Shown here: piece by piece, positions 4,851-24,380 of the stretch
Layout: every line of letters starts with the position of its first letter
Position numbering within the stretch: position 1 is the first letter of the stretch
From: Gemmatimonadota bacterium
GTDB lineage: Bacteria; Gemmatimonadota; Gemmatimonadetes; Longimicrobiales; RSA9
Assembly (NCBI GenBank): GCA_040905425.1
Contig: JBBDRO010000070.1
Span: 1 to 26,460 of the forward strand
DNA length: 26,460 nucleotides
Direction of reading: 5' to 3'
Position numbers and translations under genes: made by a program
Notes under the pieces: model-generated
What the model was told of the DNA's origin: nothing
Database searches by the model: none
Seen by the model: only the letters and a program-made list of their open reading frames with translations

Positions 4851-5345
4851 TCACCCTCCCCGTGCCAGGCGCACGGCGGCGATCACCACGATCAGGCCCA
4901 GGAACGCATTGGCGCGTGCCAGCAGGGCCGCTCGCCGGCGCATGCGCGTGGCGGCCGGCGTACCGGGTGCCACCCGGGAGGCCGCCGGGCCGTGGACGAA
5001 GTCATGGATGCCCTGGAAAAGGAGCATCAGCGTGACGGCCACGAGCTTCCACGCCAGCGCCGTGCCCCACGGCGTGCTCCAGAACGCGCCCGAGCTCAGC
5101 ACGTCCCAGCTCAGGAACCCCCGGAACCAGAGGTTCAGCGTGCCCGTCACCACCAGCACGCCGATGGCTACCCACCCCGCGGTGCGAAAGCCCGTGCCCA
5201 ACCGGCGGAAGAGTTCCGCCCTCAGCTCCGGCGGCTCCACGGTGCGCAGTACCGGTGCGCCCACCACGGCCAGGAAGAACATCCCCCCCAGCCAGAACAG
5301 GGCGGCCAGCATGTGGATCGTGACGTTCAGAAAATAGGCAGACAT
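4851..5345 (-). CDS. CopD/DUF4149-like 4-TM membrane protein
   Basis: HMLAALFWLGGMFF N-terminal motif, four hydrophobic helices, KL..V...HDF; ATG 5345 has GGAG upstream. Confidence 0.8.
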   Translation of the reverse strand: MSAYFLNVTIHMLAALFWLGGMFFLAVVGAPVLRTVEPPELRAELFRRLGTGFRTAGWVAIGVLVVTGTLNLWFRGFLSWDVLSSGAFWSTPWGTALAWKLVAVTLMLLFQGIHDFVHGPAASRVAPGTPAATRMRRRAALLARANAFLGLIVVIAAVRLARGG

Positions 5346-5396
5346 GGATGCTCCGCTGCGGCCGGAAGGCCCCGGAAGTAGACGCAAAGACCCACC

Positions 5397-5442
5397 AGCA
5401 TAGCATGCAGGCGGGCCGCGGTCAGTCGGGAAAGAGCCCCGG
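5397..5442 (-). promoter_or_regulatory. Candidate sigma70 promoter of the copD-like/kinase pair with upstream palindromic box
   Basis: Minus strand: CCGGGGCTCTTTCCCGA (5442-5426), then CTGACC(5425-5420)-17bp-TATGCT(5402-5397) with extended TGn. Confidence 0.5.
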
Positions 5443-5472
5443 CGTAGGAGGGGAAACCTTCGGGTCGGAGCG

Positions 5473-6129
5473 CTACTCGGCCTCCAGGAGCCCTGTCTGG
5501 AGGGCGAATCGTACCAGTTCCGAGCGGTGATTGAGCTTCAGCTTCTCCATGATACGGGACCGGTAGGTGTCCACCGTCTTCGGGGAGATGAACAGCTTCT
5601 CACCGATCTCGCGACTGGTGAAGCCCTCTGCCGTGAGCCCCAGGACATCACGCTCCCGCTCCGTGAGCTTCTCCAGCGGATCGTCCTCACTCGGCTCCCC
5701 CCGCACGCGGAAGCCCTGCAACAGCAGCTTGGCGGCGCTCGGGTAGAGGAAGACCTCATCGCGCGAGACGGCCCGGATGGCTCGCGTGAGGTCCTCGTCC
5801 GCGTTGGTCTTGCGCACGTAGCCGCTGCCGCCCGCCTCCAGGACCGCCAGGAGGTACTCTTCCTCGGCGTGCATGGTGAGGACCAGGGTCTTGATGCCCT
5901 TCTGCAGCGCCGCGATCTGGCGGGTGGCTTCCAGCCCGCCCATACCGGGCATGGAAAGGTCCATCACGACCAGGTCGGGGATCAGCTTCTCGGCACGTTC
6001 CACGCCCTCCTCTCCGGTGCTGGCCTCGCCGACGACTTCCATGTCATCCTCGGCGTCCAGGAGCGCGCGCAGACCCGCGCGCAGCAGCGCGTGGTCGTCC
6101 ACCAGCAGGATCTTGATGGGTTTTGCCAT
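5473..6129 (-). CDS. NarL/NreC-type (LuxR family) response regulator
   Basis: LLVDDH, phosphoacceptor MDLSMP, LTMH, LuxR HTH LTERERDVL...ISPKTVDTYRSRIMEKL. Confidence 0.96.
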   Translation of the reverse strand: MAKPIKILLVDDHALLRAGLRALLDAEDDMEVVGEASTGEEGVERAEKLIPDLVVMDLSMPGMGGLEATRQIAALQKGIKTLVLTMHAEEEYLLAVLEAGGSGYVRKTNADEDLTRAIRAVSRDEVFLYPSAAKLLLQGFRVRGEPSEDDPLEKLTERERDVLGLTAEGFTSREIGEKLFISPKTVDTYRSRIMEKLKLNHRSELVRFALQTGLLEAE

Positions 6130-11463: not shown

Positions 11464-12975
11464 ATGACGCCACGCAGCCACGTTGCCACCCCTCTGCGCG
11501 CTCTTGCGGCGCTCGCCGGCGTGACGTTGCTGGCGGCGTGCTCCGACGGTGTCACGGCGCCGCCGCAGCCGGCCGCCCTCGAAGTGGCGGCGGGTGCGCG
11601 TCAGAGCGCGGCCGTGGGCAGTGCCCTGGCCACCGCTCCCGCCGTGCGGGTCGTGGACGCCGCGGGGCGCGGTGTGGGCGGCGTGGAGGTGGCCTTCAGC
11701 GTGCTGGCGGGCGGCGGCAGCGTGGCGGCCGCCACGGCCGTGACCGACCGCGCCGGTCTGGCCACCGGCGCATGGACGCTGGGCACCACCCCGGGTGTGA
11801 ATGAACTGCGCGCCTCCGCCGCGGGGCTGGGCGCCGTCACCTTCACGGCCGCGGCGGTCCCCGGCGCCGCGGCGCACGTCAGCGCGCGCGCCGGAGACGG
11901 GCTGGCGGCGCTGGCGGGCTCCGTCACCGCCGAGGCGCCCACGGTGGCCGTCACGGACGCCTACGGCAACGCCGTGGCCGGCGTGAGCGTGCGCTTTGCC
12001 GTGCGCTCCGGCGGCGGCCAGGTGAGCGGCGCGAGCGCGGTGACCGACGCCAGCGGTCTGGCGAGTGTCGGTAGCTGGACGCTGGGGCAACCGGGCCTGA
12101 ACGAACTCACGGCCACGGTCACTGGCCTGCCGGCCGTGGTGTTCACCGCCACCGCGCAGCTGGAACAGACCGGGGGTGGCTACGACATCGAGGTGCGTTA
12201 TCTCTCGGCGTCCACGGCGCGGCAGCGCCAGGCCGTGGAGGCCGCCGTGGCCCGCTGGGAGGGCGTCATCGTGGGGGACCTGCCGGACGTACGGCTCCAG
12301 TATGACAACGTCTGCGGCCGCAGCGGACTGGCGGTGGACCAGTGGGTGGATGATCTGCTCGTGTACGTGGACTTCGACACCATCGACGGCGTGGGCAAGA
12401 TTCTGGGCCAGGCGGGCCCGTGCTTCATCCGTGGCGACGGCAGCAAGCTGCCGGTGGCGGGCATCGTCATCCTGGACGGCGCCGATCTGGCCGCCATGCA
12501 GGCGGACGGCTCGCTGGATGACGTGGTACTGCACGAGATCGGTCACGTGCTGGGCATCGGGACGCTCTGGCCCACGCTGAGTCTGCTGGCCGGCGCCGGC
12601 ACCTCCGATCCGTACTTCACCGGCGCGGAGGGACGGCGCGCCTTCGCCAGCGCGGGAGGCTCCAGCTATACGGGCGAGCACGTCCCGGTGGAGAACACGG
12701 GGGGCGCCGGCACGCGGGACGCCCACTGGCGGGAAAACGTGCTCGGCAACGAGCTCATGACCGGTTTCATCTCGGCGTCGGCCAATCCGCTGAGCGGACT
12801 GACCGTGGGCTCGCTCGCCGACCTGGGGTACACGGTGGCCATGAGCGCCGCGGACGGCTTTACCGTGGGTGCCGGCGGCGTGCACGGCTATCAGGCACCC
12901 GGCGCGGAGCACGTCCGGGAGCTGGTGGAGCGGCCGCTGCCCTTCCTGCCGATTCCGGTACCGACCGGCGGCTAG
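11464..12975 (+). CDS. Lipoprotein: two Ig-like repeats plus leishmanolysin-like (M8) zinc metallopeptidase
   Basis: Lipobox LAAC; two ~100-aa repeats (V.V.D..G..V.GV.V.F.V..GGG.V...TD..G.A..G.WTLG); HEIGHVLG, AHW, ELMTG. Confidence 0.9.
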   Translation: MTPRSHVATPLRALAALAGVTLLAACSDGVTAPPQPAALEVAAGARQSAAVGSALATAPAVRVVDAAGRGVGGVEVAFSVLAGGGSVAAATAVTDRAGLATGAWTLGTTPGVNELRASAAGLGAVTFTAAAVPGAAAHVSARAGDGLAALAGSVTAEAPTVAVTDAYGNAVAGVSVRFAVRSGGGQVSGASAVTDASGLASVGSWTLGQPGLNELTATVTGLPAVVFTATAQLEQTGGGYDIEVRYLSASTARQRQAVEAAVARWEGVIVGDLPDVRLQYDNVCGRSGLAVDQWVDDLLVYVDFDTIDGVGKILGQAGPCFIRGDGSKLPVAGIVILDGADLAAMQADGSLDDVVLHEIGHVLGIGTLWPTLSLLAGAGTSDPYFTGAEGRRAFASAGGSSYTGEHVPVENTGGAGTRDAHWRENVLGNELMTGFISASANPLSGLTVGSLADLGYTVAMSAADGFTVGAGGVHGYQAPGAEHVRELVERPLPFLPIPVPTGG

Positions 12976-13086
12976 GCCAGAAACAGGTGGTGCATTCCGC
13001 GCCGCGGTTTTAACTTTGTGGATGTGAGACGGGGGCGCCCGACCGGGCACCACCCGCTCCATCTGCTCCTCCAAATCCAACCGGCG

Positions 13087-15231
13087 ATGAAGCTGATGGC
13101 AGACTCGATGCGTGCCCCCCGCATGGGGGTTCTAATCTCTCTGGTGCTTGGGAGCGTGCTGCTGGCCTCCTGCAAGGACGCCACCAAGCCGCCCGTCCCC
13201 ACGGAGCTCGAGAGGGTGGCCGGGGATGGCCAGAGTGCCACGGTGAATACCGCCGTCACCACGCCGCCGGCCGTGCGCGTACTGGACGAGCTCGGCAACC
13301 CCATGGCCGGAGAGACGGTGACGTTCACCGTGGTGGCGGGGGGTGGCAGCGTTGCGGGCGCCTCCGCCACGACGGACGCCACCGGCCTGGCCACGGCGGG
13401 CGCCTGGACGCTCGGCACCGCCAAGGGCGCCAACCGGCTGCGGGCCAGTTCGGGTTCGCTCAACGTGGAGTTCGAGGCCATGGGCACGGCGGCGGGCCCC
13501 GCCGACCTGGCCAGGGTGACGGGTGACGGCCAGGTTGCCCCGGTGGTGAGTGCGGTGAGCGTCAAGCCGTCCGTGCGTGTGGTGGATGAGTTCGGCAACC
13601 CGGTGGAGGGTCGCCGCGTCACCTTCGCGCCGGCCCAGAGCAGCGGCAGCGTAACGGGCGCCACGCCCAACACGGACGCCACCGGAACGGCCACCGTGGG
13701 CAACTGGACGCTCGGCTCGCAGGCGGGCACGCAGACGCTGCGCGCCACCGTGACCGGGCTGCCCGAGGTGGAGTTTACCGCCACCGCCGAACCGGGCGTT
13801 GCCACCAAGGTCATCGTGGCTTCCGGTGATGCCCAGACGGGCGCGGTGGGCAGCGCCGTGGCGGCGCCCACCGCGCGCGTGGCGGATCAGTATGGCAACG
13901 GCCGGCCCGGCCACACGGTGACCTTCACCGTGACCGGCGGCGGGGGCTCCGTAAGCGGCGCCACGGGCACCAGCGGGCCGGACGGGACCGTCACCGTGGG
14001 CGGCTGGACGCTGGGCACCCTGCCCGGGGCGAACACGCTGAGCGCCAGCGCACCCGGCCTGACACCCGTCACCTTCGCGGCCACCGCCGAGCCCGGCCCG
14101 CCCGCCAGCCTGGTCGTGGCCGCCGGGGACGCCCAGACGGCCGACCCGGGCGCGGAGGTGCCCGTGCGGCCCGCCGTGCGCGTCAATGACATTTACGGCA
14201 ACGCCGTGCCCCAGGCCACGGTCACCTTCGCGGTGGCGAGCGGCGGCGGCAGCGTGAGTGGCGCCACGCAGGTGACGGACTTCACCGGCGTGGCCACCGC
14301 CGGCGGCTGGACCCTCGGCCCGAACCCGGGCCAGAACACCCTCACGGCCACGGTCTCGGGGCTGGCGCCGCTCACCTTTACGGCCACCGCCTCCACCGGG
14401 GCCGGGGGCGGCAGCGGCAGCTACTCCATCACCATCCGCTACATCAATGCGGGCACGACGGCCCAGCAGGCGGCGGTGGCCGCGGCGGTGGCGCGCTGGG
14501 AGGAAGTGATCACGGGGGACCAGGCCGATGTCCAGGTTACCGTTTCCAACGTCTGTGGCATCACCGGCCTCAACGTGGACGAGGTGGTGGATGACGTCCT
14601 CATCTACGTGGACTTCGCGGAGATCGACGGCGTGGGCAAGGTCCTGGGACAGGCCGGACCATGCCGGATCCGCAGCTCCAACGCGCTCACCACCGTGGGC
14701 ATTGTCATGCTGGACGGCGCCGATCTGGCCGGCATGGAGACCAACGGCACGCTGGAGGACGTGATCCTGCACGAGATCGGCCACGTGCTGGGCATCGGCA
14801 CGCTCTGGGAGACGCTGGGTCTGCTGGCCGCCAAGGTGACCAGCACCGAGCCGAACAACCTGCCTGCCTTCACCGGGGCAGCCGCGATCGCCGCCTTTGA
14901 CGGCTCGGGCGGCCAGACCCACACGGGCGCCAAGGTTCCCGTGGAGAACACCGGCGGCGCGGGCACCGCCAACTCGCACTGGCGCGAGACCGTCATGACC
15001 AACGAGCTGATGACCGGCTTCATTGCCGCTGGCAACAATCCCCTCAGCCTGATCACGGTCATGTCCCTGCAGGATATCGGCTACGTGATCAATGCGGCCG
15101 TAGCGGACAGCTACACCGTGACCAACCCGGTGCGCGCCCAAGGGGACGTCGAGCAGCTGCTGCAGCTGAAGGAGTTGCCGCTGCCGTTCGCGCCGAAGGT
15201 GGACTACGACGGTCCGGTCATCCGCCGCTGA
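13087..15231 (+). CDS. Lipoprotein: four Ig-like repeats plus leishmanolysin-like (M8) zinc metallopeptidase
   Basis: Lipobox LASC; four WTLG repeats; HEIGHVLG, SHW, ELMTG. Start uncertain (13087-13123). Confidence 0.9.
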   Translation: MKLMADSMRAPRMGVLISLVLGSVLLASCKDATKPPVPTELERVAGDGQSATVNTAVTTPPAVRVLDELGNPMAGETVTFTVVAGGGSVAGASATTDATGLATAGAWTLGTAKGANRLRASSGSLNVEFEAMGTAAGPADLARVTGDGQVAPVVSAVSVKPSVRVVDEFGNPVEGRRVTFAPAQSSGSVTGATPNTDATGTATVGNWTLGSQAGTQTLRATVTGLPEVEFTATAEPGVATKVIVASGDAQTGAVGSAVAAPTARVADQYGNGRPGHTVTFTVTGGGGSVSGATGTSGPDGTVTVGGWTLGTLPGANTLSASAPGLTPVTFAATAEPGPPASLVVAAGDAQTADPGAEVPVRPAVRVNDIYGNAVPQATVTFAVASGGGSVSGATQVTDFTGVATAGGWTLGPNPGQNTLTATVSGLAPLTFTATASTGAGGGSGSYSITIRYINAGTTAQQAAVAAAVARWEEVITGDQADVQVTVSNVCGITGLNVDEVVDDVLIYVDFAEIDGVGKVLGQAGPCRIRSSNALTTVGIVMLDGADLAGMETNGTLEDVILHEIGHVLGIGTLWETLGLLAAKVTSTEPNNLPAFTGAAAIAAFDGSGGQTHTGAKVPVENTGGAGTANSHWRETVMTNELMTGFIAAGNNPLSLITVMSLQDIGYVINAAVADSYTVTNPVRAQGDVEQLLQLKELPLPFAPKVDYDGPVIRR

Positions 15232-19182: not shown

Positions 19183-20844
19183 CTACATCCGCTCATACAC
19201 CACCCGGCCGCCCACCACCGTAAGGTCCACGCGCGCGTCCGGGATGCGGTCCGGAGCCACCTCCAGGATGTTGCCGGAGAGCACCACCAGGTCGGCCAGC
19301 TTGCCGCGCTCCAGCGTGCCCAGCTCCGCTTCCATGAACGCGCCGTACGCGTTGGCGGCGGTGTAGGCGCGCAGCGCCTCCGCCACGGTGATCTTCTGCT
19401 CCGGGACCCAGCCGTCGGGATTGGCGCCGTCGATGGTGGCGCGCGTCACGGCGGCGTGGATGCCGAGCAGCGGATCCATGGGCGCCACCGTCCAGTCACT
19501 GCCGAACATGAGGCCGGCGCCCGCGTCCAGCAGGGAGCGGAAGGCGTAGGTGCCCTGCACGCGCTCGGGGCCGATGCGGTTGCCCGCCCAGCGGCCGTCG
19601 TCCACCGCGTGGTAGGGCTGCATGGAGGGCAGGACGCCCAGCTCCGCGAAGCGCGCGATGGCGGCCGGCGTGAGGTGCTGCGCATGCTCGATGCGGAAGC
19701 GACGGTCGCGCGCCCCGTTCCGCGCGGCCACATCGGCGTAGGTCTCCAGCAGCCAATCGTTCGCGCGGTCGCCGATGGCGTGCACGACCACCTGCAGCCC
19801 GGCGGCGTCCGCGGCCGCGATCTGCCGGGCCAGCTCGGTGGTGTCACTCACCGTGAAGCCGCGTGTGGAGGGGTCGTCAGTGTAGGGTTCGTAGAACCAG
19901 GCGGTGGTGGAGCCCAGCGACCCGTCCACGAAGCCCTTGAGGCCGCCCCAGCGCAGCATGGCGTCCCCCCTGCCGCTGGCCTCCACCTCGGCACGCAGCC
20001 GCTCCCAGGTGGCCAGCGGCACGTAGGAGGCCACGCGCATGCGCAGCTCACCCGCCTCCCGGGCGCGCCGGTACGTGGCCAGGTCGGCCCAGCCGCCCAT
20101 GTCCTGCACCAGCGTCACACCCACCGAGAGCGCGTGCTCCTGCGCCCGCGCGAAGGCGGCGTCCCGCTCCGCCTCAGACGGCTCGGGCATGTGCGGGTAG
20201 ACCAGGCCCATGGCCTCATCCTTGAGCACGCCGGCGGGCGCCCCCGCGGCGTCCCGTACGATGAGCCCGCCCGCCGGGTCGGGCGTCCCCGCGGTGACGC
20301 CCGCCAGCTCCAGCGCCCGCGTGTTGGCCAGCGCCATGTGGCCGTCCAGGCGATTCACGAAGACCGGGTTGTCGGGTGTGAGCGAGTCGATCCACGCGCG
20401 CTGCGGCAGCGGCGAGCCCTCCCACAGCTCGTGGTCCCAGTCCCCGCCGGTGAGCCACTGGCCCGGCTCCAATCCCGCCACGAAGGCGCCGATGCGGCGC
20501 GCGAATTCCTCCGGCGTGGCGGCGTCCCGCAGGTCCACGCTGGCAAGCTGGAAGCCGCCGCTCATGAAGTGCGCGTGGTCGTCGATGAAGCCTGGCGTGA
20601 CCAGCCGCCCGCCGAGTTCCACGACCCGGGTGTCAGGGCCCATGTAGCGGGCCACGTCGGCCGCGGAGCCCACCATCACGATGCGGCCGTCGGAGACGGC
20701 CAGCGCTTCGGCGGGCGCAGCCAGCGGCACGCCGGTCCAGACCACGCCGCCGGTAAGCACCAGGTCGGCGGCCTCGGGACCGGAGTCGGCGCAGGCCGCG
20801 AACGGGAGGGTGGTGAGCAGAAGGAGGAGAAGGCGTCGTCGCAT
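19183..20844 (-). CDS. YtcJ-like amidohydrolase (Amidohydro_3), predicted lipoprotein
   Basis: PGFIDDHAH, DGH, K.FVDGSLG, HAIGD, RIEHAQ, GSDW, GKLADLVVL; lipobox FAAC. Confidence 0.93.
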   Translation of the reverse strand: MRRRLLLLLLTTLPFAACADSGPEAADLVLTGGVVWTGVPLAAPAEALAVSDGRIVMVGSAADVARYMGPDTRVVELGGRLVTPGFIDDHAHFMSGGFQLASVDLRDAATPEEFARRIGAFVAGLEPGQWLTGGDWDHELWEGSPLPQRAWIDSLTPDNPVFVNRLDGHMALANTRALELAGVTAGTPDPAGGLIVRDAAGAPAGVLKDEAMGLVYPHMPEPSEAERDAAFARAQEHALSVGVTLVQDMGGWADLATYRRAREAGELRMRVASYVPLATWERLRAEVEASGRGDAMLRWGGLKGFVDGSLGSTTAWFYEPYTDDPSTRGFTVSDTTELARQIAAADAAGLQVVVHAIGDRANDWLLETYADVAARNGARDRRFRIEHAQHLTPAAIARFAELGVLPSMQPYHAVDDGRWAGNRIGPERVQGTYAFRSLLDAGAGLMFGSDWTVAPMDPLLGIHAAVTRATIDGANPDGWVPEQKITVAEALRAYTAANAYGAFMEAELGTLERGKLADLVVLSGNILEVAPDRIPDARVDLTVVGGRVVYERM

Positions 20845-20923
20845 GGTGCCTCTGAAGTGAAGGACGTAATGGGGAGGATAGCGCCCGCGCCCGGCGGCCG
20901 GCCAGCGCAGCGCAACATGACCC

Positions 20924-20952
20924 TTGCGCTAAACAGTTAACCCATGTAATGT
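20924..20952 (+). promoter_or_regulatory. Sigma70-like promoter
   Basis: TTGCGC(20924-29)-17bp-TAATGT(20947-52) in a strikingly AT-rich patch; predicted TSS about 20958-20960. Confidence 0.6.
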
Positions 20953-20958
20953 AATTAC

Positions 20959-21344
20959 TGGATCAAGGAAAAGGATCCGGTCGGCCACCCTGACGCGCCG
21001 ACTGCCTCGTTCCCGGTCCGCCTCCACGGTGCTACGGCCCGACGCCGGGGCCTGGTGGAGGCCGCCAGTGGTGCCGCTCTCGCGGGCGGGTCCAATAGGG
21101 GATGCCGGCCGGATCCGACCACTACGGCGCTCCGCGTATGCCGACGGGTGGCTGCGGAGTTGCCTGGCCCCCGTCGCGCCACGTGCCGCCGCGGCCGGCG
21201 GGTGGTCACGGGCGCCGTCGGGCCCCGAGCCCGGCGGTGGCCCACCCGCTTCACCGGCGTCCGGGAGCATCCGGCCCGCGCGGCCTCTCACGCGGGTCCG
21301 GGGCATGCTTCCGGGCGCTGGGCCGCGCTCCCGAAATCGGGAGG
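20959..21344 (+). ncRNA. Unassigned highly structured RNA (long leader or ncRNA), about 390 nt
   Basis: Stems read by eye: 20973-85/21104-16; 21020-27/21055-62; 21126-36/21153-64; 21198-205/21242-49; 21215-23/21229-37; 21254-70/21305-21 (17 bp); 21328-33/21338-43. The non-Watson-Crick pairs are G-U on the + strand. Confidence 0.6.
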
Positions 21345-21353
21345 ATGGGTGTC

Positions 21354-21431
21354 ATGGCATTCGTGCTCTTCATCGTGATCTGCTTCCTGATGTGCGGCGG
21401 GGAATGGCTGTGGAAGCACCGCCCGCATTGA
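21354..21431 (+). CDS. 25-aa single-TM small protein MAFVLFIVICFLMCGGEWLWKHRPH
   Basis: GGGAGG SD at 21339-44, 9 nt before ATG; high GC3 codons; hydrophobic helix plus Trp/basic tail. Confidence 0.65.
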   Translation: MAFVLFIVICFLMCGGEWLWKHRPH

Positions 21432-21482
21432 GCCCCGTTCCAGCGCCTGACCAGCCCAGCGGCAGCACCAGCACCAAAGACC

Positions 21483-21520
21483 GCGCCCCGGCGCCCGTCC
21501 GAAGACCGGCGCCGGGGCGC
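21483..21520 (-). terminator. Intrinsic-terminator-like hairpin between convergent genes
   Basis: 13-bp perfect stem GCGCCCCGGCGCC/GGCGCCGGGGCGC; cUUCGg loop and GGTCTTT tail on the minus strand; may act in both directions. Confidence 0.75.
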
Positions 21521-21542
21521 GTTGCGTGTGCGGCTCAGCGGC

Positions 21543-24380
21543 TCAGCGCTGATCCATCCACACGTCCTCGATCACCGCCACCGAGCGGGACTGCTCCTGC
21601 CCGTTGACGCTCAGCGTGACCACGTAGCTGCCGGCGTCCACCTCGGGACCGCGCTGCGGTCCACGGCGTCCCGACTGCTCCTCCTCCTCCTCCGGATCCT
21701 CGCGCAGGTCCCACTGCACGCGGTTCAGCCCGGTGGTGGTCTGCACCTCGATGGTGCGGATCACATCGGGGCTGCCCGCCTCCCGGATGGTGAGCGTGGC
21801 CTGCCCGCGCGGAGCCGACCCCAGATAGAAGCTCAGGAACGCGCCATCGGGCGCGCCGCGGCCGACCCAGCCCTTGTTGCCCGTCACGGGCCGGCTGTAG
21901 CGCGGGTCCGACCGCCACAGCACCGCTTCGCGCGGCTGGAAGAGATGCACGTCACTGGCGAGCACCGCGGGCGTCATCTGCTGCAGTGACGTGATGTCAT
22001 CCATGATCTGGACGCTGTAGGAGTGTGTGGCCAGCACCAGATCATTGTCCCGCGGATGGACCAGCACGTCATCCACGCGCCCGGTGGCCAGGCCGGGCAT
22101 GAACTGCTCCCAGCTCTGCCCCTGGTTCAGCGAGACGAAGAAGCCGTTCTCCGTGCCCAGGTAGAGCAGGTTGGGATTGCGCGCGTCCTGGCGCACGGTG
22201 TTCACGTTGCCGAAGGCGGGCAGGTTGGAGGTGATGTTGGTCCAGCTCTGCCCGTAGTCGTGCGTCACGTAGACGTAGGGCCGCATGTCATTGTCCAGCG
22301 CCCCATCGAGCGATGCGAACGCCACCGCGGGATCGAAGTGGGACGCCTCCACGCGCGACACGTAGTACTCCATGGTGCCGCCGGGCATGTTCTGGCCCAC
22401 CTCGGTGAAGGTCTCACCGCCGTTGCGGCTCACCTGGATGTTGCCGTCGTCGGTGCCCACCCAGAGGAGGCCCGGGATGACGGCCGACTCGGACACGCTG
22501 ACGCTGGTGCCCCAGACGTTCACCCCGTCGTTGCGGGACAGGATGCACGGCTGGCCCGGCGGGGTGCGCCCGCACCGGCCCAGGTCGTAGGGCGTGCCCA
22601 TGATGTCGAGCGCGCGGATGTCCACGCCCTTCGTCAGCTCCGGGCTCATGCGGTACGTCTCACCCCGGTCGTGGGAGGTGAACAGGTGGTTGCCGCCCAC
22701 GTGGATGGTGCGCGGGTCGTGGGGCGAGAGCATGAACGGCGTGCTCCAGTTCCACTGGATGCGCGTGTTCGCGGACGGCGTCGGCACGATGTTGCCAAGG
22801 TTCTCACCGTTGTTGCTCGGTGTGCGCGGCCGGATGCTGCCGCCGCCGTCACCGTCCAGATGGATGCGGCGCACGTTGCCGTTCTGGGACTCGGAGTAAA
22901 TGATGGTGTAGTCGGTGGGGTCCACGGCCGTGTAGAAGCCGTCGCCGCCGCCCACGCGGTACCAGTCCTGGGGCAGGATGCCGCCGCTCCGCACGGAGCT
23001 GGGGCCGCACCAGCTGCCGTTGTCCTGCAGCCCGGTGCACACGTAGTAGGGCCGGCGCATGTCCACCGAGGCGTGGTAGGGCTGGCCCACCGACCAGCCG
23101 CGCAGGGACTCCCACGCCTCACCACCGTCATAGGTGACGTCCACCGAGCCGTCGTTGCCGTACATGACGTGGTCCCCATCGGTCGGATCCACCCAGATGG
23201 CGTGGTGGTCCACGTGGCCCAGGCCGCGCATGGTCTGGAAGGTCCGGCCGCCGTCGGTGGACTTGTAGGCCTGCACGCCGCCGGTGTAGACGATCTCCGG
23301 GTTCTGCGTGTGCACGCGGAGCTGGCTGAAGTACATGGGCCGCACGTTGTGGTTGCTGCGGAACTCCCAGTTCTGCCCGCCGTCCGTCGAGCGCCAGACG
23401 CCGTCGGCGTTGGGATCCGTCACGTCCTGGCCCGCATCTTCCGCCTCCTCGCGCCGCTCCCGCTCAGCCTCCCACTCGGCCTCCGTCATGGGGGGCGAGC
23501 GGTCCGCCGCTACCTCGATCTGCGCATAGATCACATTGGGGTTGGAGAGGGACCAGTCCAGGGCAACGCGCCCCATGGTGCCACCCGGCAGCCCGTTGCC
23601 GGACAGGCGGGTCCAGTGCTCTCCGCCGTCCGTGGAGCGCCAGATGCCGCTGCCCGGTCCACCGCCCACGAAGCAGCACGACGTGCGCCGCCGCTGGTAG
23701 GTGGCCGCGTAGAGGTTGTTCGGATTCGACGGGTCGATGATCAGCTCCGTGGCGCCCGTGTTCTCATCCACGTAGAGCGTCCTGTCCCACGTGCGGCCGC
23801 CATTGCTGCTCTTGTAGACGCCACGTTCCGGCGAGGGACCGAAGAGCGCGCCGTTGGCCGCCACCCAGACCACGTCCGGGTTGGTGGGATGCACGCGGAT
23901 GCGGGCAATGGTCTGCGTACCCTCGAGCCCCATGTGCTGGAAGCTCTCGCCGCCGTCGGTGGTCTTGTAAACGCCGTAGCCGTAGGAGGAGCTCTGCCGG
24001 TTGTTGGCCTCACCGGTGCCCACGTACACCACGTTCGGATTGGACGGCGCGATAGCCATGTCCCCGATGGAGGCCGTCTCGTATTCGCCGAAGACGTTCT
24101 CGAACGTGATGCCATTGTTGCTGGTCTTCCACACCCCCGCGGTGGAGAAGCCCACGTAGTAGGTGTAGGGGTCGGCCGGGTTCACTTCGATGTCGTCGAC
24201 CCGGCCGCCCTGCTGGATCGGGCCGATCTCCCGCCATTGGAAACCCTGCAGCAGCGGGCTGGTGGGTGCGTTGATCACCTGGTTCTGACCACCCTGGGCC
24301 AGAGCGGGGGCGGGCACGGCCAGGAGGAGCGCCATTAGCGCAGCGCCGAGCTTGAAGCGCTGCTTACCGAGCAGGCTCAT
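21543..24380 (-). CDS. Secreted VPS10/sortilin-like BNR (Asp-box) repeat protein (GH74-like fold)
   Basis: ATG 24380 with AAGGAGA RBS, signal peptide ending ALA-Q, WREIGP...GR, repeated S/T-x-D/N-GG-x-x-W/F, GGDGF, GTDDG; 945 aa. Confidence 0.92.
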   Translation of the reverse strand: MSLLGKQRFKLGAALMALLLAVPAPALAQGGQNQVINAPTSPLLQGFQWREIGPIQQGGRVDDIEVNPADPYTYYVGFSTAGVWKTSNNGITFENVFGEYETASIGDMAIAPSNPNVVYVGTGEANNRQSSSYGYGVYKTTDGGESFQHMGLEGTQTIARIRVHPTNPDVVWVAANGALFGPSPERGVYKSSNGGRTWDRTLYVDENTGATELIIDPSNPNNLYAATYQRRRTSCCFVGGGPGSGIWRSTDGGEHWTRLSGNGLPGGTMGRVALDWSLSNPNVIYAQIEVAADRSPPMTEAEWEAERERREEAEDAGQDVTDPNADGVWRSTDGGQNWEFRSNHNVRPMYFSQLRVHTQNPEIVYTGGVQAYKSTDGGRTFQTMRGLGHVDHHAIWVDPTDGDHVMYGNDGSVDVTYDGGEAWESLRGWSVGQPYHASVDMRRPYYVCTGLQDNGSWCGPSSVRSGGILPQDWYRVGGGDGFYTAVDPTDYTIIYSESQNGNVRRIHLDGDGGGSIRPRTPSNNGENLGNIVPTPSANTRIQWNWSTPFMLSPHDPRTIHVGGNHLFTSHDRGETYRMSPELTKGVDIRALDIMGTPYDLGRCGRTPPGQPCILSRNDGVNVWGTSVSVSESAVIPGLLWVGTDDGNIQVSRNGGETFTEVGQNMPGGTMEYYVSRVEASHFDPAVAFASLDGALDNDMRPYVYVTHDYGQSWTNITSNLPAFGNVNTVRQDARNPNLLYLGTENGFFVSLNQGQSWEQFMPGLATGRVDDVLVHPRDNDLVLATHSYSVQIMDDITSLQQMTPAVLASDVHLFQPREAVLWRSDPRYSRPVTGNKGWVGRGAPDGAFLSFYLGSAPRGQATLTIREAGSPDVIRTIEVQTTTGLNRVQWDLREDPEEEEEQSGRRGPQRGPEVDAGSYVVTLSVNGQEQSRSVAVIEDVWMDQR

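Follow-up and report, generated by a model that had tools for sequence, protein, structure and literature searches.

Does the 698-nt gap between two minus-strand genes of a Gemmatimonadota contig hold a gene of its own and, if so, does that gene encode a toxin, as its layout would suggest, or a protein of another kind? The gap lies on contig C70 within the window analyzed here, a 26,460-nt stretch of DNA (GenBank assembly GCA_040905425.1, contig JBBDRO010000070.1, positions 1 to 26,460) from a bacterium whose genome comprises 4.12 Mb at 70% G+C and 96.7% completeness. An original prediction, made from the nucleotide letters alone, had placed in the gap a plus-strand transcription unit composed of a sigma-70-like promoter, a folded leader of about 390 nt, a Shine–Dalgarno (SD) sequence buried in a hairpin, a 25-residue hydrophobic peptide and a strong downstream hairpin, and had read this unit as a type I toxin-like system or a novel riboregulator. 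All of the listed elements are present, with coordinates exact or within one base. The plus-strand unit with its promoter, structured non-coding leader, small hydrophobic open reading frame (ORF) and terminator hairpin is retained in what follows, but the toxin is not.

The ORF at 21354–21431 on the plus strand (MAFVLFIVICFLMCGGEWLWKHRPH) encodes 25 residues that comprise one hydrophobic helix containing Cys10 and Cys14, followed by the tail EWLWKHRPH. When the frames of the genome are ranked with a profile made from 11 peptides of other genomes only, with the candidate left out, this ORF comes second among 76,283 frames with an E value of 4.3e-6. The first rank is taken by a paralog on contig C15 of the same genome (E 1.4e-6), and the next frame follows at E 0.12. 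The codon-usage log-likelihood of the ORF is +13.6 bits over 25 codons, and G+C at its third codon positions is 0.88. We compared the ORF with that of L074, a metagenome contig on which the three genes of the locus recur in unchanged order and which is the sole known ortholog of the window-type leader. The five nucleotide differences between them alter three codons synonymously and replace Leu by Ala in a fourth, at a position that is variable across the family, compared with synonymous to non-synonymous ratios of 0:4 and 0:3 in the other two plus-strand frames. By these sequence measures the ORF is a genuine, conserved small-protein gene, and the hydrophobic ORF with a Trp/basic tail that had been predicted is borne out by the independent profile, the codon usage and the synonymous changes in L074. 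An alternative in-frame ATG at 21345 would give a protein of 28 residues; the family alignment begins at the ATG at 21354, and one public protein (P0011), which like P0012 has the GGEWLW motif, starts from the upstream ATG.

The peptide is one member of a family that we first found by a six-frame search of 73 genomes from the same taxonomic family. Its members share the motif M-G-Y-[VA]-L-F-x-x-I-A-F-x-M-L-G-x-E (consensus MGYVLFILIAFxMLGxE), followed by a His/Arg-rich tail that holds one to five histidines, often as HxH and shortest in the window copy. A search of 1.84 billion representative proteins with the family profile returns 45 matches at E ≤ 1e-3 that are 28–85 residues long, mostly 28–40, and the N-terminal helix is conserved throughout these 45 clusters (50% identity clustering). 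With these 45 representative matches and 15 copies in the 73 genomes, the conservation expected of a real peptide is found. Fourteen of the copies were detected at E < 1e-5 in 12 of the 73 genomes by profile search, and the fifteenth, a divergent one (G072:C32), through its leader motif; weak matches inside long ORFs of G013, G010 and G051 (E 0.0036–0.0089) were left uncounted, and G016 gives a chance-level match only (E 0.83). Among 401 genomes sampled across the phylum, there is no convincing match outside one Longimicrobiales family (other matches have E > 0.003), and in the genomes searched we thus found the peptide family only there. It has no Pfam or NCBIfam model: the best Pfam hit, to unrelated families, has an E value of 0.11, NCBIfam gives no match, and an ESM Atlas look-up of a relative's peptide returned only unnamed clusters with scores of 0.80 or below. 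In an incomplete library of papers we found no published account of the peptide family, nor of a small leading ORF for HybA/HybB-type modules, which is no proof of absence. The two cysteines, one helical turn apart, are common to the window copy and L074 only, which suggests a shifted role for the window copy. In the relatives' genes, A-ending codons (GGA, GTA, ATA, GCA) recur at codons 2–9, in genomes of approximately 70% G+C where we would expect them to be rare; the window copy mostly does without them.

The genomic context of the relatives is uniform for most copies. Eleven of the 15, including the C15 paralog (C15:45640–45747), lie 48–153 nt upstream of a gene that encodes a HybA-HybB fusion with a twin-arginine (Tat) signal. 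In the window's genome this gene, on the minus strand at C15:45588–43498 (L078:199–2289), encodes 696 residues. Because its product passes the NCBIfam cut-offs both for HybA (279.6 versus 263 bits) and for the HybB-type Ni/Fe-hydrogenase cytochrome b subunit (455.6 versus 450 bits) and carries Pfam Fer4_11 plus NrfD, we identify it as a fused HybA-HybB module, that is, a 4Fe-4S module joined to an NrfD-type quinone module. The fused proteins span 691–738 residues (nine complete genes). Orthologs of the fusion gene, which we call hybAB, occur in about 14 of the 73 genomes, and 11 of the 13 with readable upstream DNA have the peptide upstream; the exceptions are G024, which has no peptide, and G009, which has a different 77-residue ORF in its place. 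The peptide-hybAB operons are in turn preceded by a MarR-family gene and a small conserved gene.

The remaining four copies lack hybAB downstream. The window copy is followed by a hairpin and then by a convergent gene. One copy in G073 (C12:19289) directly follows the hybAB gene and is equipped with a separate promoter, a short leader and a terminator, and a stand-alone copy in G072 (C119) has its own promoter and terminator ahead of an outer-membrane efflux gene. In G047 (L092:3615–5000, G047:C7) the MarR/small-gene cassette and the peptide are followed by a Cation_efflux (CDF) gene that replaces hybAB; CusB-type and RND efflux genes, an OmpA-family gene and a molybdate-transporter-like MFS gene are nearby. 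With 11 of 15 copies linked and four unlinked, the hybAB linkage therefore characterizes most of the family without being a criterion for belonging to it. Three genomes (the window's own, G072 and G073) have two copies each, one linked to hybAB and the other free-standing.

Two further features of these operons deserve mention. The MarR gene and its neighbor of approximately 55–100 residues (C15:46197–47316, on L078, and L010:81–1191 among the relatives) always accompany the peptide-hybAB unit; the neighbor bears the motif ALYE.EVLPEN...LYAVMDDL and has no Pfam or NCBIfam match, and the MarR-family protein of G004 has a Cys-rich C-terminal extension. In G004 (L060:1620–1670), and at the same place in its genus, the spacer between the peptide stop and the hybAB start is a conserved, hairpin-rich stretch (GGCCTGACCGGGAGCCGATCC.GGTCC...AACGGCAGGGCC) that may be a second control element.

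The promoter-like site of the window copy consists of a −35 hexamer TTGCGC (20924–20929), a 17-nt spacer and a −10 hexamer TAATGT (20947–20952) on the plus strand, 430 nt from the ATG, and would start transcription near 20959–20961. Its support derives from conservation across loci and not from the match to the sigma-70 consensus, with which the hexamers agree at only six of 12 positions. Both hexamers are unchanged in L074, and a similar layout stands 192–207 nt upstream of the ATG in eight of the 13 other peptide loci scanned, the C15 paralog included; the family layout of TTGCGN, a 16–17-nt spacer and a TAAT-type −10 element is thus found in the window copy as well. The strict pattern CTTGCGN-N16/17-TA[AC]TNT occurs three times on the two strands of the 4.12-Mb genome, twice upstream of the two peptide genes, although it was written after the loci had been seen, so that the count is illustrative and no clean test. 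Having kept the family promoter, the window copy is therefore probably co-regulated with the C15 paralog. Short inverted repeats lie between or over the hexamers, GTAAT-GTA-ATTAC in the window (20930–20960) and TTAAC-N3-GTTAA in several relatives; they may serve as an operator, for example one bound by the neighboring MarR protein.

Between the predicted start and the ATG extends a plus-strand leader of about 393 nt (20960–21353) whose G+C content of 75–85% exceeds that of the flanking genes. No frame scores positive for coding across 20960–21320. Relative to L074, the best leader frame on either strand has a synonymous to non-synonymous ratio of 3:3, compared with 43:23 in the true frame of a control gene, and the L074 leader contains two single-base, frame-breaking indels, at 21091 and 21122. 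We examined the longer ORFs that run through the region and rejected them. A 97-residue in-frame upstream extension of the small gene, open in both orthologs, has a negative codon score and only non-synonymous changes; a 109-residue extension from 21102 has a negative codon score and mostly non-synonymous differences, and 21102–21431 has no Pfam match; the minus-strand ORFs 20929–21306 and 20955–21254 likewise score negative with mostly non-synonymous differences. The Pfam search covered 21102–21431, 20929–21306 and an ORF at 21029–21607, and none of the three has a match. Because there is no synonymous excess, because L074 has indels and because the upstream extension changes only non-synonymously, the comparison indicates that the leader is non-coding.

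The nucleotide sequence of the leader is nonetheless well conserved. Over 20961–21327 it is 93.8% identical to L074, whereas the values for the flanking amidohydrolase and BNR genes are 92.5% (85.8% at third positions) and 88.5% (84.4% at third positions), respectively. Conservation is strongest in a block at 21138–21323, where three of 186 sites differ (98.4% identity) as opposed to roughly 15% at the third codon positions of the flanking genes, and two of these three differences (21226–21227) are located in a hairpin loop. This disparity argues for strong purifying selection on the leader sequence itself. The least conserved stretch is 21432–21481, directly after the stop, with indels and an identity of 62% across 21440–21479. 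The window leader is about 230 nt longer than the leaders of other members, and the conserved block, which is missing from the C15 paralog, makes up most of the excess. DNA searches with the leader recovered no more than short GC-rich matches in its own genome (the best elsewhere being 58 nt at 77%) or in 41 related genomes. In keeping with the novelty that had been claimed for it, the leader matches no Rfam family: a search with 4227 families gives no match at gathering score over the whole window, and across 20800–21600 a single chance-level match (Scr3202, E 9.7) falls on the terminator hairpin.

The window leader also folds better than shuffled sequences, and more so on the plus strand. 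For 20961–21356 the z-score is −3.61 on the plus strand, where none of 100 shuffles is as stable, compared with −1.81 on the minus strand (5 of 100), and for the 3′ domain (21125–21356) the values are −3.96 (1 of 200) and −2.09 (5 of 200). Owing to G-U pairs, each of the four hairpins tested in the leader is stabler on the plus strand, with plus versus minus energies of −36.6/−28.9, −54.9/−45.3, −17.0/−13.1 and −28.9/−27.4 kcal/mol. Two of them lie in the conserved block, a 19-bp hairpin at 21199–21248 (−36.6 kcal/mol) and a 28-bp hairpin at 21254–21321 (−54.9 kcal/mol), each 8–10 kcal/mol weaker on the minus strand. Of the four folded domains originally described, which are single-sequence predictions, only these two hairpins recur in the centroid structures of both the window and L074, and we read them as the robust, plus-strand-specific part of the predicted fold. 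The 5′ domain (20973–21118, plus strand) is predicted in both the minimum free-energy (MFE) and the centroid structure to be closed by a 13-bp helix between GGAUCCGGUCGGC (20973–20985) and GCCGGCCGGAUCC (21106–21118) that encloses a hairpin at 21020–21062; the change of C to U at 20982 in L074 retains a G-U pair in this helix. Wobble-compatible changes of this kind occur in the leader outside the conserved block. Directly upstream of the gene, the SD hairpin CUCCCG-AAAU-CGGGAG (21328–21343, plus strand, −10.8 kcal/mol) contains the SD sequence GGAGG (21340–21344), 9 nt before the AUG at 21354.

The strong hairpin foreseen downstream of the ORF is present as a 17-bp, G+C-rich stem at 21482–21521, with folding energies of −40.2 kcal/mol on the plus strand and −43.6 kcal/mol on the minus strand. 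It is identical in L074 and is not followed by a U-tract strong enough for a terminator scan. The hairpin is likely a bidirectional terminator common to the small gene and to the convergent Sortilin/BNR-repeat gene on the minus strand, whose stop is at 21543. On the other side of the unit, the Amidohydro_3 gene (19183–20844, minus strand) has its start facing the gap.

We favor, at a little better than an even chance, a reading in which the small membrane protein at the head of the relatives' operons has an orphan paralog in the window, with the family promoter and a selected plus-strand leader whose effect in cis is on translation or stability. In such a scheme, an independent plus-strand unit would encode a 25-residue single-pass membrane protein; the window copy would have lost the downstream enzyme gene and kept the family promoter. 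The leader would be under selection as a plus-strand RNA, and we infer a cis-acting role in which it sets the translation initiation of the small gene, the stability of its mRNA or both. The ribosome-binding site (RBS) is paired in the predicted ensemble, and helices of 19 and 28 bp could serve as substrates for a double-strand RNase or as sites for a protein to bind. The operon linkage and the strongly conserved helix point to a partner-binding protein, so that the peptide may be an accessory or regulatory partner of inner-membrane proteins. It is possibly metal binding through its His tail and, in the window copy, Cys10 and Cys14; the His-rich tails together with the two efflux contexts suggest metal binding for the family.

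Several observations weigh against this reading. A scan of 20700–21700 with generic sigma-70 consensus and terminator models calls no promoters and no terminators, so that the sigma-70-like promoter originally proposed stands by its hexamers and their conservation across loci but not by consensus. In terms of folding, the window leader outperforms shuffled controls, as had been anticipated, though the L074 leader as a whole does not (z −0.89 on the plus strand, 19 of 100, and −1.38 on the minus strand). The L074 3′ domain reaches only −2.01 (11 of 200), and the folding excess is therefore not conserved. The 5′ domain is predicted to fold differently in L074. One pair of the hairpin at 21020–21062 is lost through the change of A to C at 21059, which L074 has in common with a low-depth contig from a soil metagenome, and the change of T to C at 21056 in the soil contig would break that hairpin as well. 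Measured against the MFE structure of the window sequence alone, the 26 L074 differences on the plus-strand fold comprise 10 unpaired, seven pair-keeping (all G-U) and nine pair-breaking changes, compared with 11, two and 13 on the minus-strand fold; the nine of 26 that break predicted pairs count against the fold.

The SD lock is also weaker than it first appears. The sequence and the predicted fold agree that the SD is buried in a hairpin, as had been claimed, but L074 has five changes in 21324–21342 that convert GGGAGG to GGGTGG and introduce a U-U mismatch into the stem. The energy required to open the RBS (21 nt, SD to AUG) is 17.5 kcal/mol in the window, calculated with a longer upstream context than for the background genes, and 11.0 kcal/mol in L074, whereas 120 other genes of the genome have a median of 12.2 kcal/mol and a 5–95% range of 5.2–19.6 kcal/mol. 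The modeled RBS thus appears occluded but within the normal range of its genome, and the lock is not conserved. The notion of a novel riboregulator accordingly retains its conserved, Rfam-negative leader and loses the exceptional SD lock. Finally, the link between the peptide and HybAB is one of gene order, and the window copy has no such neighbor. The window's genome has no match to PF00374, the [NiFe]-hydrogenase large subunit (at 96.7% completeness); four relatives do have a detectable one. We dropped a hydrogenase subunit as the identity of the peptide on the same PF00374 result.

The relatives carry a leader of another kind. In four genera, a motif of approximately 130 nt (model R1) comprises the boxes CCGGUCCGGCA, GGCCUCUCCGGGCC, UGCCGGACCGG and GGUCCGGAGAGGCC and is followed by a strong SD, as in G004 (L060:1352–1484). 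The pairing of the boxes is interleaved, box 1 with box 3 over 11 bp and box 2 with box 4 over 9 bp or more, which in the model allows a pseudoknot or mutually exclusive helices. Standard pairs are formed in 97% of the cells, and only two pairs change on both sides, so that covariation is weak. The motif matches no Rfam family. The R1 covariance model locates 11 places in 10 of the 73 genomes, all beside a peptide start, 10 of which are training sequences. Run without filters and at E values up to 10, it matches nothing on the plus strand of 20960–21353, of the L074 leader or of the C15 leader. Because the model matches none of these, the window leader is a separate invention. We also considered the window 5′ domain as a diverged copy of the relatives' motif and dropped this idea for lack of an R1 match; the likeness of GGAUCCGGUCGGCC to the first box is anecdotal.

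Of the alternatives, we regard a ligand-sensing riboswitch as the best survivor, albeit an improbable one, in which the leader or its block would be an aptamer for a metal ion or a redox-related metabolite that switches translation. The strong conservation of a non-coding leader, the plus-strand folding with the RBS paired in the predicted ensemble and the lack of any known RNA family to account for the leader are all compatible with such a switch, and the His-rich peptides and the metal-efflux neighbors of two copies supply a metal theme. There is also precedent, since small proteins of Clostridioides difficile are reported to be regulated by a c-di-GMP riboswitch (PMC13724677). That system is similar to the window unit in having a structured leader before a very small membrane-associated protein; it differs in that the window leader matches no aptamer family. 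The architecture of the block does not resemble an aptamer, however: it is composed mostly of near-perfect 19- and 28-bp helices and has no multi-helix junction with conserved unpaired bases. Moreover, the DNA search did not find the block in 41 related genomes, the other members use the unmatched leader motif, no curated riboswitch class matches at gathering score, and the SD hairpin, which would be the expression platform, is the least conserved part of the leader.

A more far-reaching proposal, which we hold to be doubtful, is that the block at 21138–21323 is a new large cis-acting riboregulator, either a metal/redox sensor or a processing switch. It would gate a neofunctionalized micro-protein, with Cys-x3-Cys gained and His-x2-His kept, that acts in trans on membrane metal/redox homeostasis independently of HybAB. 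If this were true, then, together with the pseudoknot-capable motif of the relatives, one small protein would be under two unrelated RNA control devices.

It is similarly doubtful that the conserved block has a function of its own that does not involve the ORF, as a small RNA on either strand or a palindromic site at the DNA level that simply happens to sit between promoter and gene. In favor of this, both of its flanks, the 5′ domain and the SD region, are far less conserved than the block, which also makes up most of the length by which the leader exceeds those of other members, and the C15 paralog lacks it. Against it, upstream DNA that is AT-rich and promoter-like is limited to the family promoter, and the block would therefore be transcribed together with the ORF. 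The G-U pairs on which its hairpins depend are available on the plus strand only, and the genome contains no second copy (the best match elsewhere being the 58-nt one).

The type I toxin–antitoxin system of the original prediction, in which a membrane-depolarizing peptide would be silenced by the folded leader and an undetected antisense RNA, survives poorly, and we now consider it quite unlikely. Type I toxin mRNAs (tisB, hok, zorO, aapA, timP) have a long folded 5′ untranslated region, a paired SD and a small hydrophobic ORF that ends in an aromatic/basic tail, and the window unit resembles them in its long structured leader, paired SD and AUG, and small hydrophobic peptide with a Trp/basic tail. 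The presence of two copies in each of three genomes and of four copies without the enzyme gene would also suit a toxin. The family, however, behaves differently. For 11 of the 15 copies, a promoter of the same type is followed first by the peptide gene and then by a hybAB-type gene, an arrangement that is not known for type I toxins such as those of the hok, tisB, zor and aapA loci. Conservation of the N-terminal helix extends over 45 clusters, with no Pfam match beyond chance, and SD sequestration is neither exceptional nor conserved. The failure to identify an antitoxin RNA is repeated here, in that even at seven of 12 matches there is no minus-strand promoter-like site in 20960–21560; the sole minus-strand site in 20850–21560, at 20904, faces the amidohydrolase gene. 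The stretch just after the ORF is the least conserved and holds no conserved antisense element.

Least of all do we credit a decaying remnant, in which the head of an operon was duplicated and has since lost its expression or use. This reading is disfavored since, despite the loss of hybAB, the shortest tail in the family and an SD that varies between orthologs, the ORF is intact with mostly synonymous changes in two lineages whose flanking genes differ by 7–11%, the promoter hexamers are identical and the leader block is conserved far beyond neutral sites.

The orphan-paralog reading places the peptide closest to known small accessory membrane proteins such as CydX of cytochrome bd, KdpF of Kdp, AcrZ of AcrB and MgtS. 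Like these proteins, it is shorter than 50 residues and has one hydrophobic helix and a short charged cytoplasmic tail, and most members of its family are the first cistron of an operon for a membrane redox or transport protein. It differs in that there is no sequence relation, the partnership with HybAB is putative, and the window copy is detached from its partner gene and has a leader of about 390 nt. The putative partner can in turn be compared with the HybA/HybB module of hydrogenase 2 and other NrfC/NrfD-type modules (PMC8076601). The gene after the peptide, at the C15 paralog and 10 other loci, is similar in passing the HybA/HybB cut-offs with Fer4_11 plus NrfD; it differs in that the subunits are fused, in a genome without a detectable [NiFe] large subunit.

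Elsewhere in the window, a gene for a CopD-like membrane protein adjoins genes for a LuxR-type response regulator and two histidine kinases (4854–6129), and two leishmanolysin-like (M8) peptidase genes with Big_1 domains are present at 11464–15228.

Small membrane proteins are routinely missed by annotation, and few are known outside model bacteria. Our finding defines a family of such proteins in the poorly studied Longimicrobiales, with a clear genomic partner in the fused HybA-HybB gene beside a MarR-type regulator, and the His-rich tails of the family hint at metal handling. The window copy indicates that an operon head made of promoter, leader and peptide can be duplicated and kept free-standing. 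Its leader is conserved well past the neutral rate and belongs to no known RNA family. Should this leader prove to be neither a sensor nor a processing switch, the locus would still provide a solid small-gene annotation and a correction of the toxin guess; if it is either of these, the leader would be a new RNA regulatory element.

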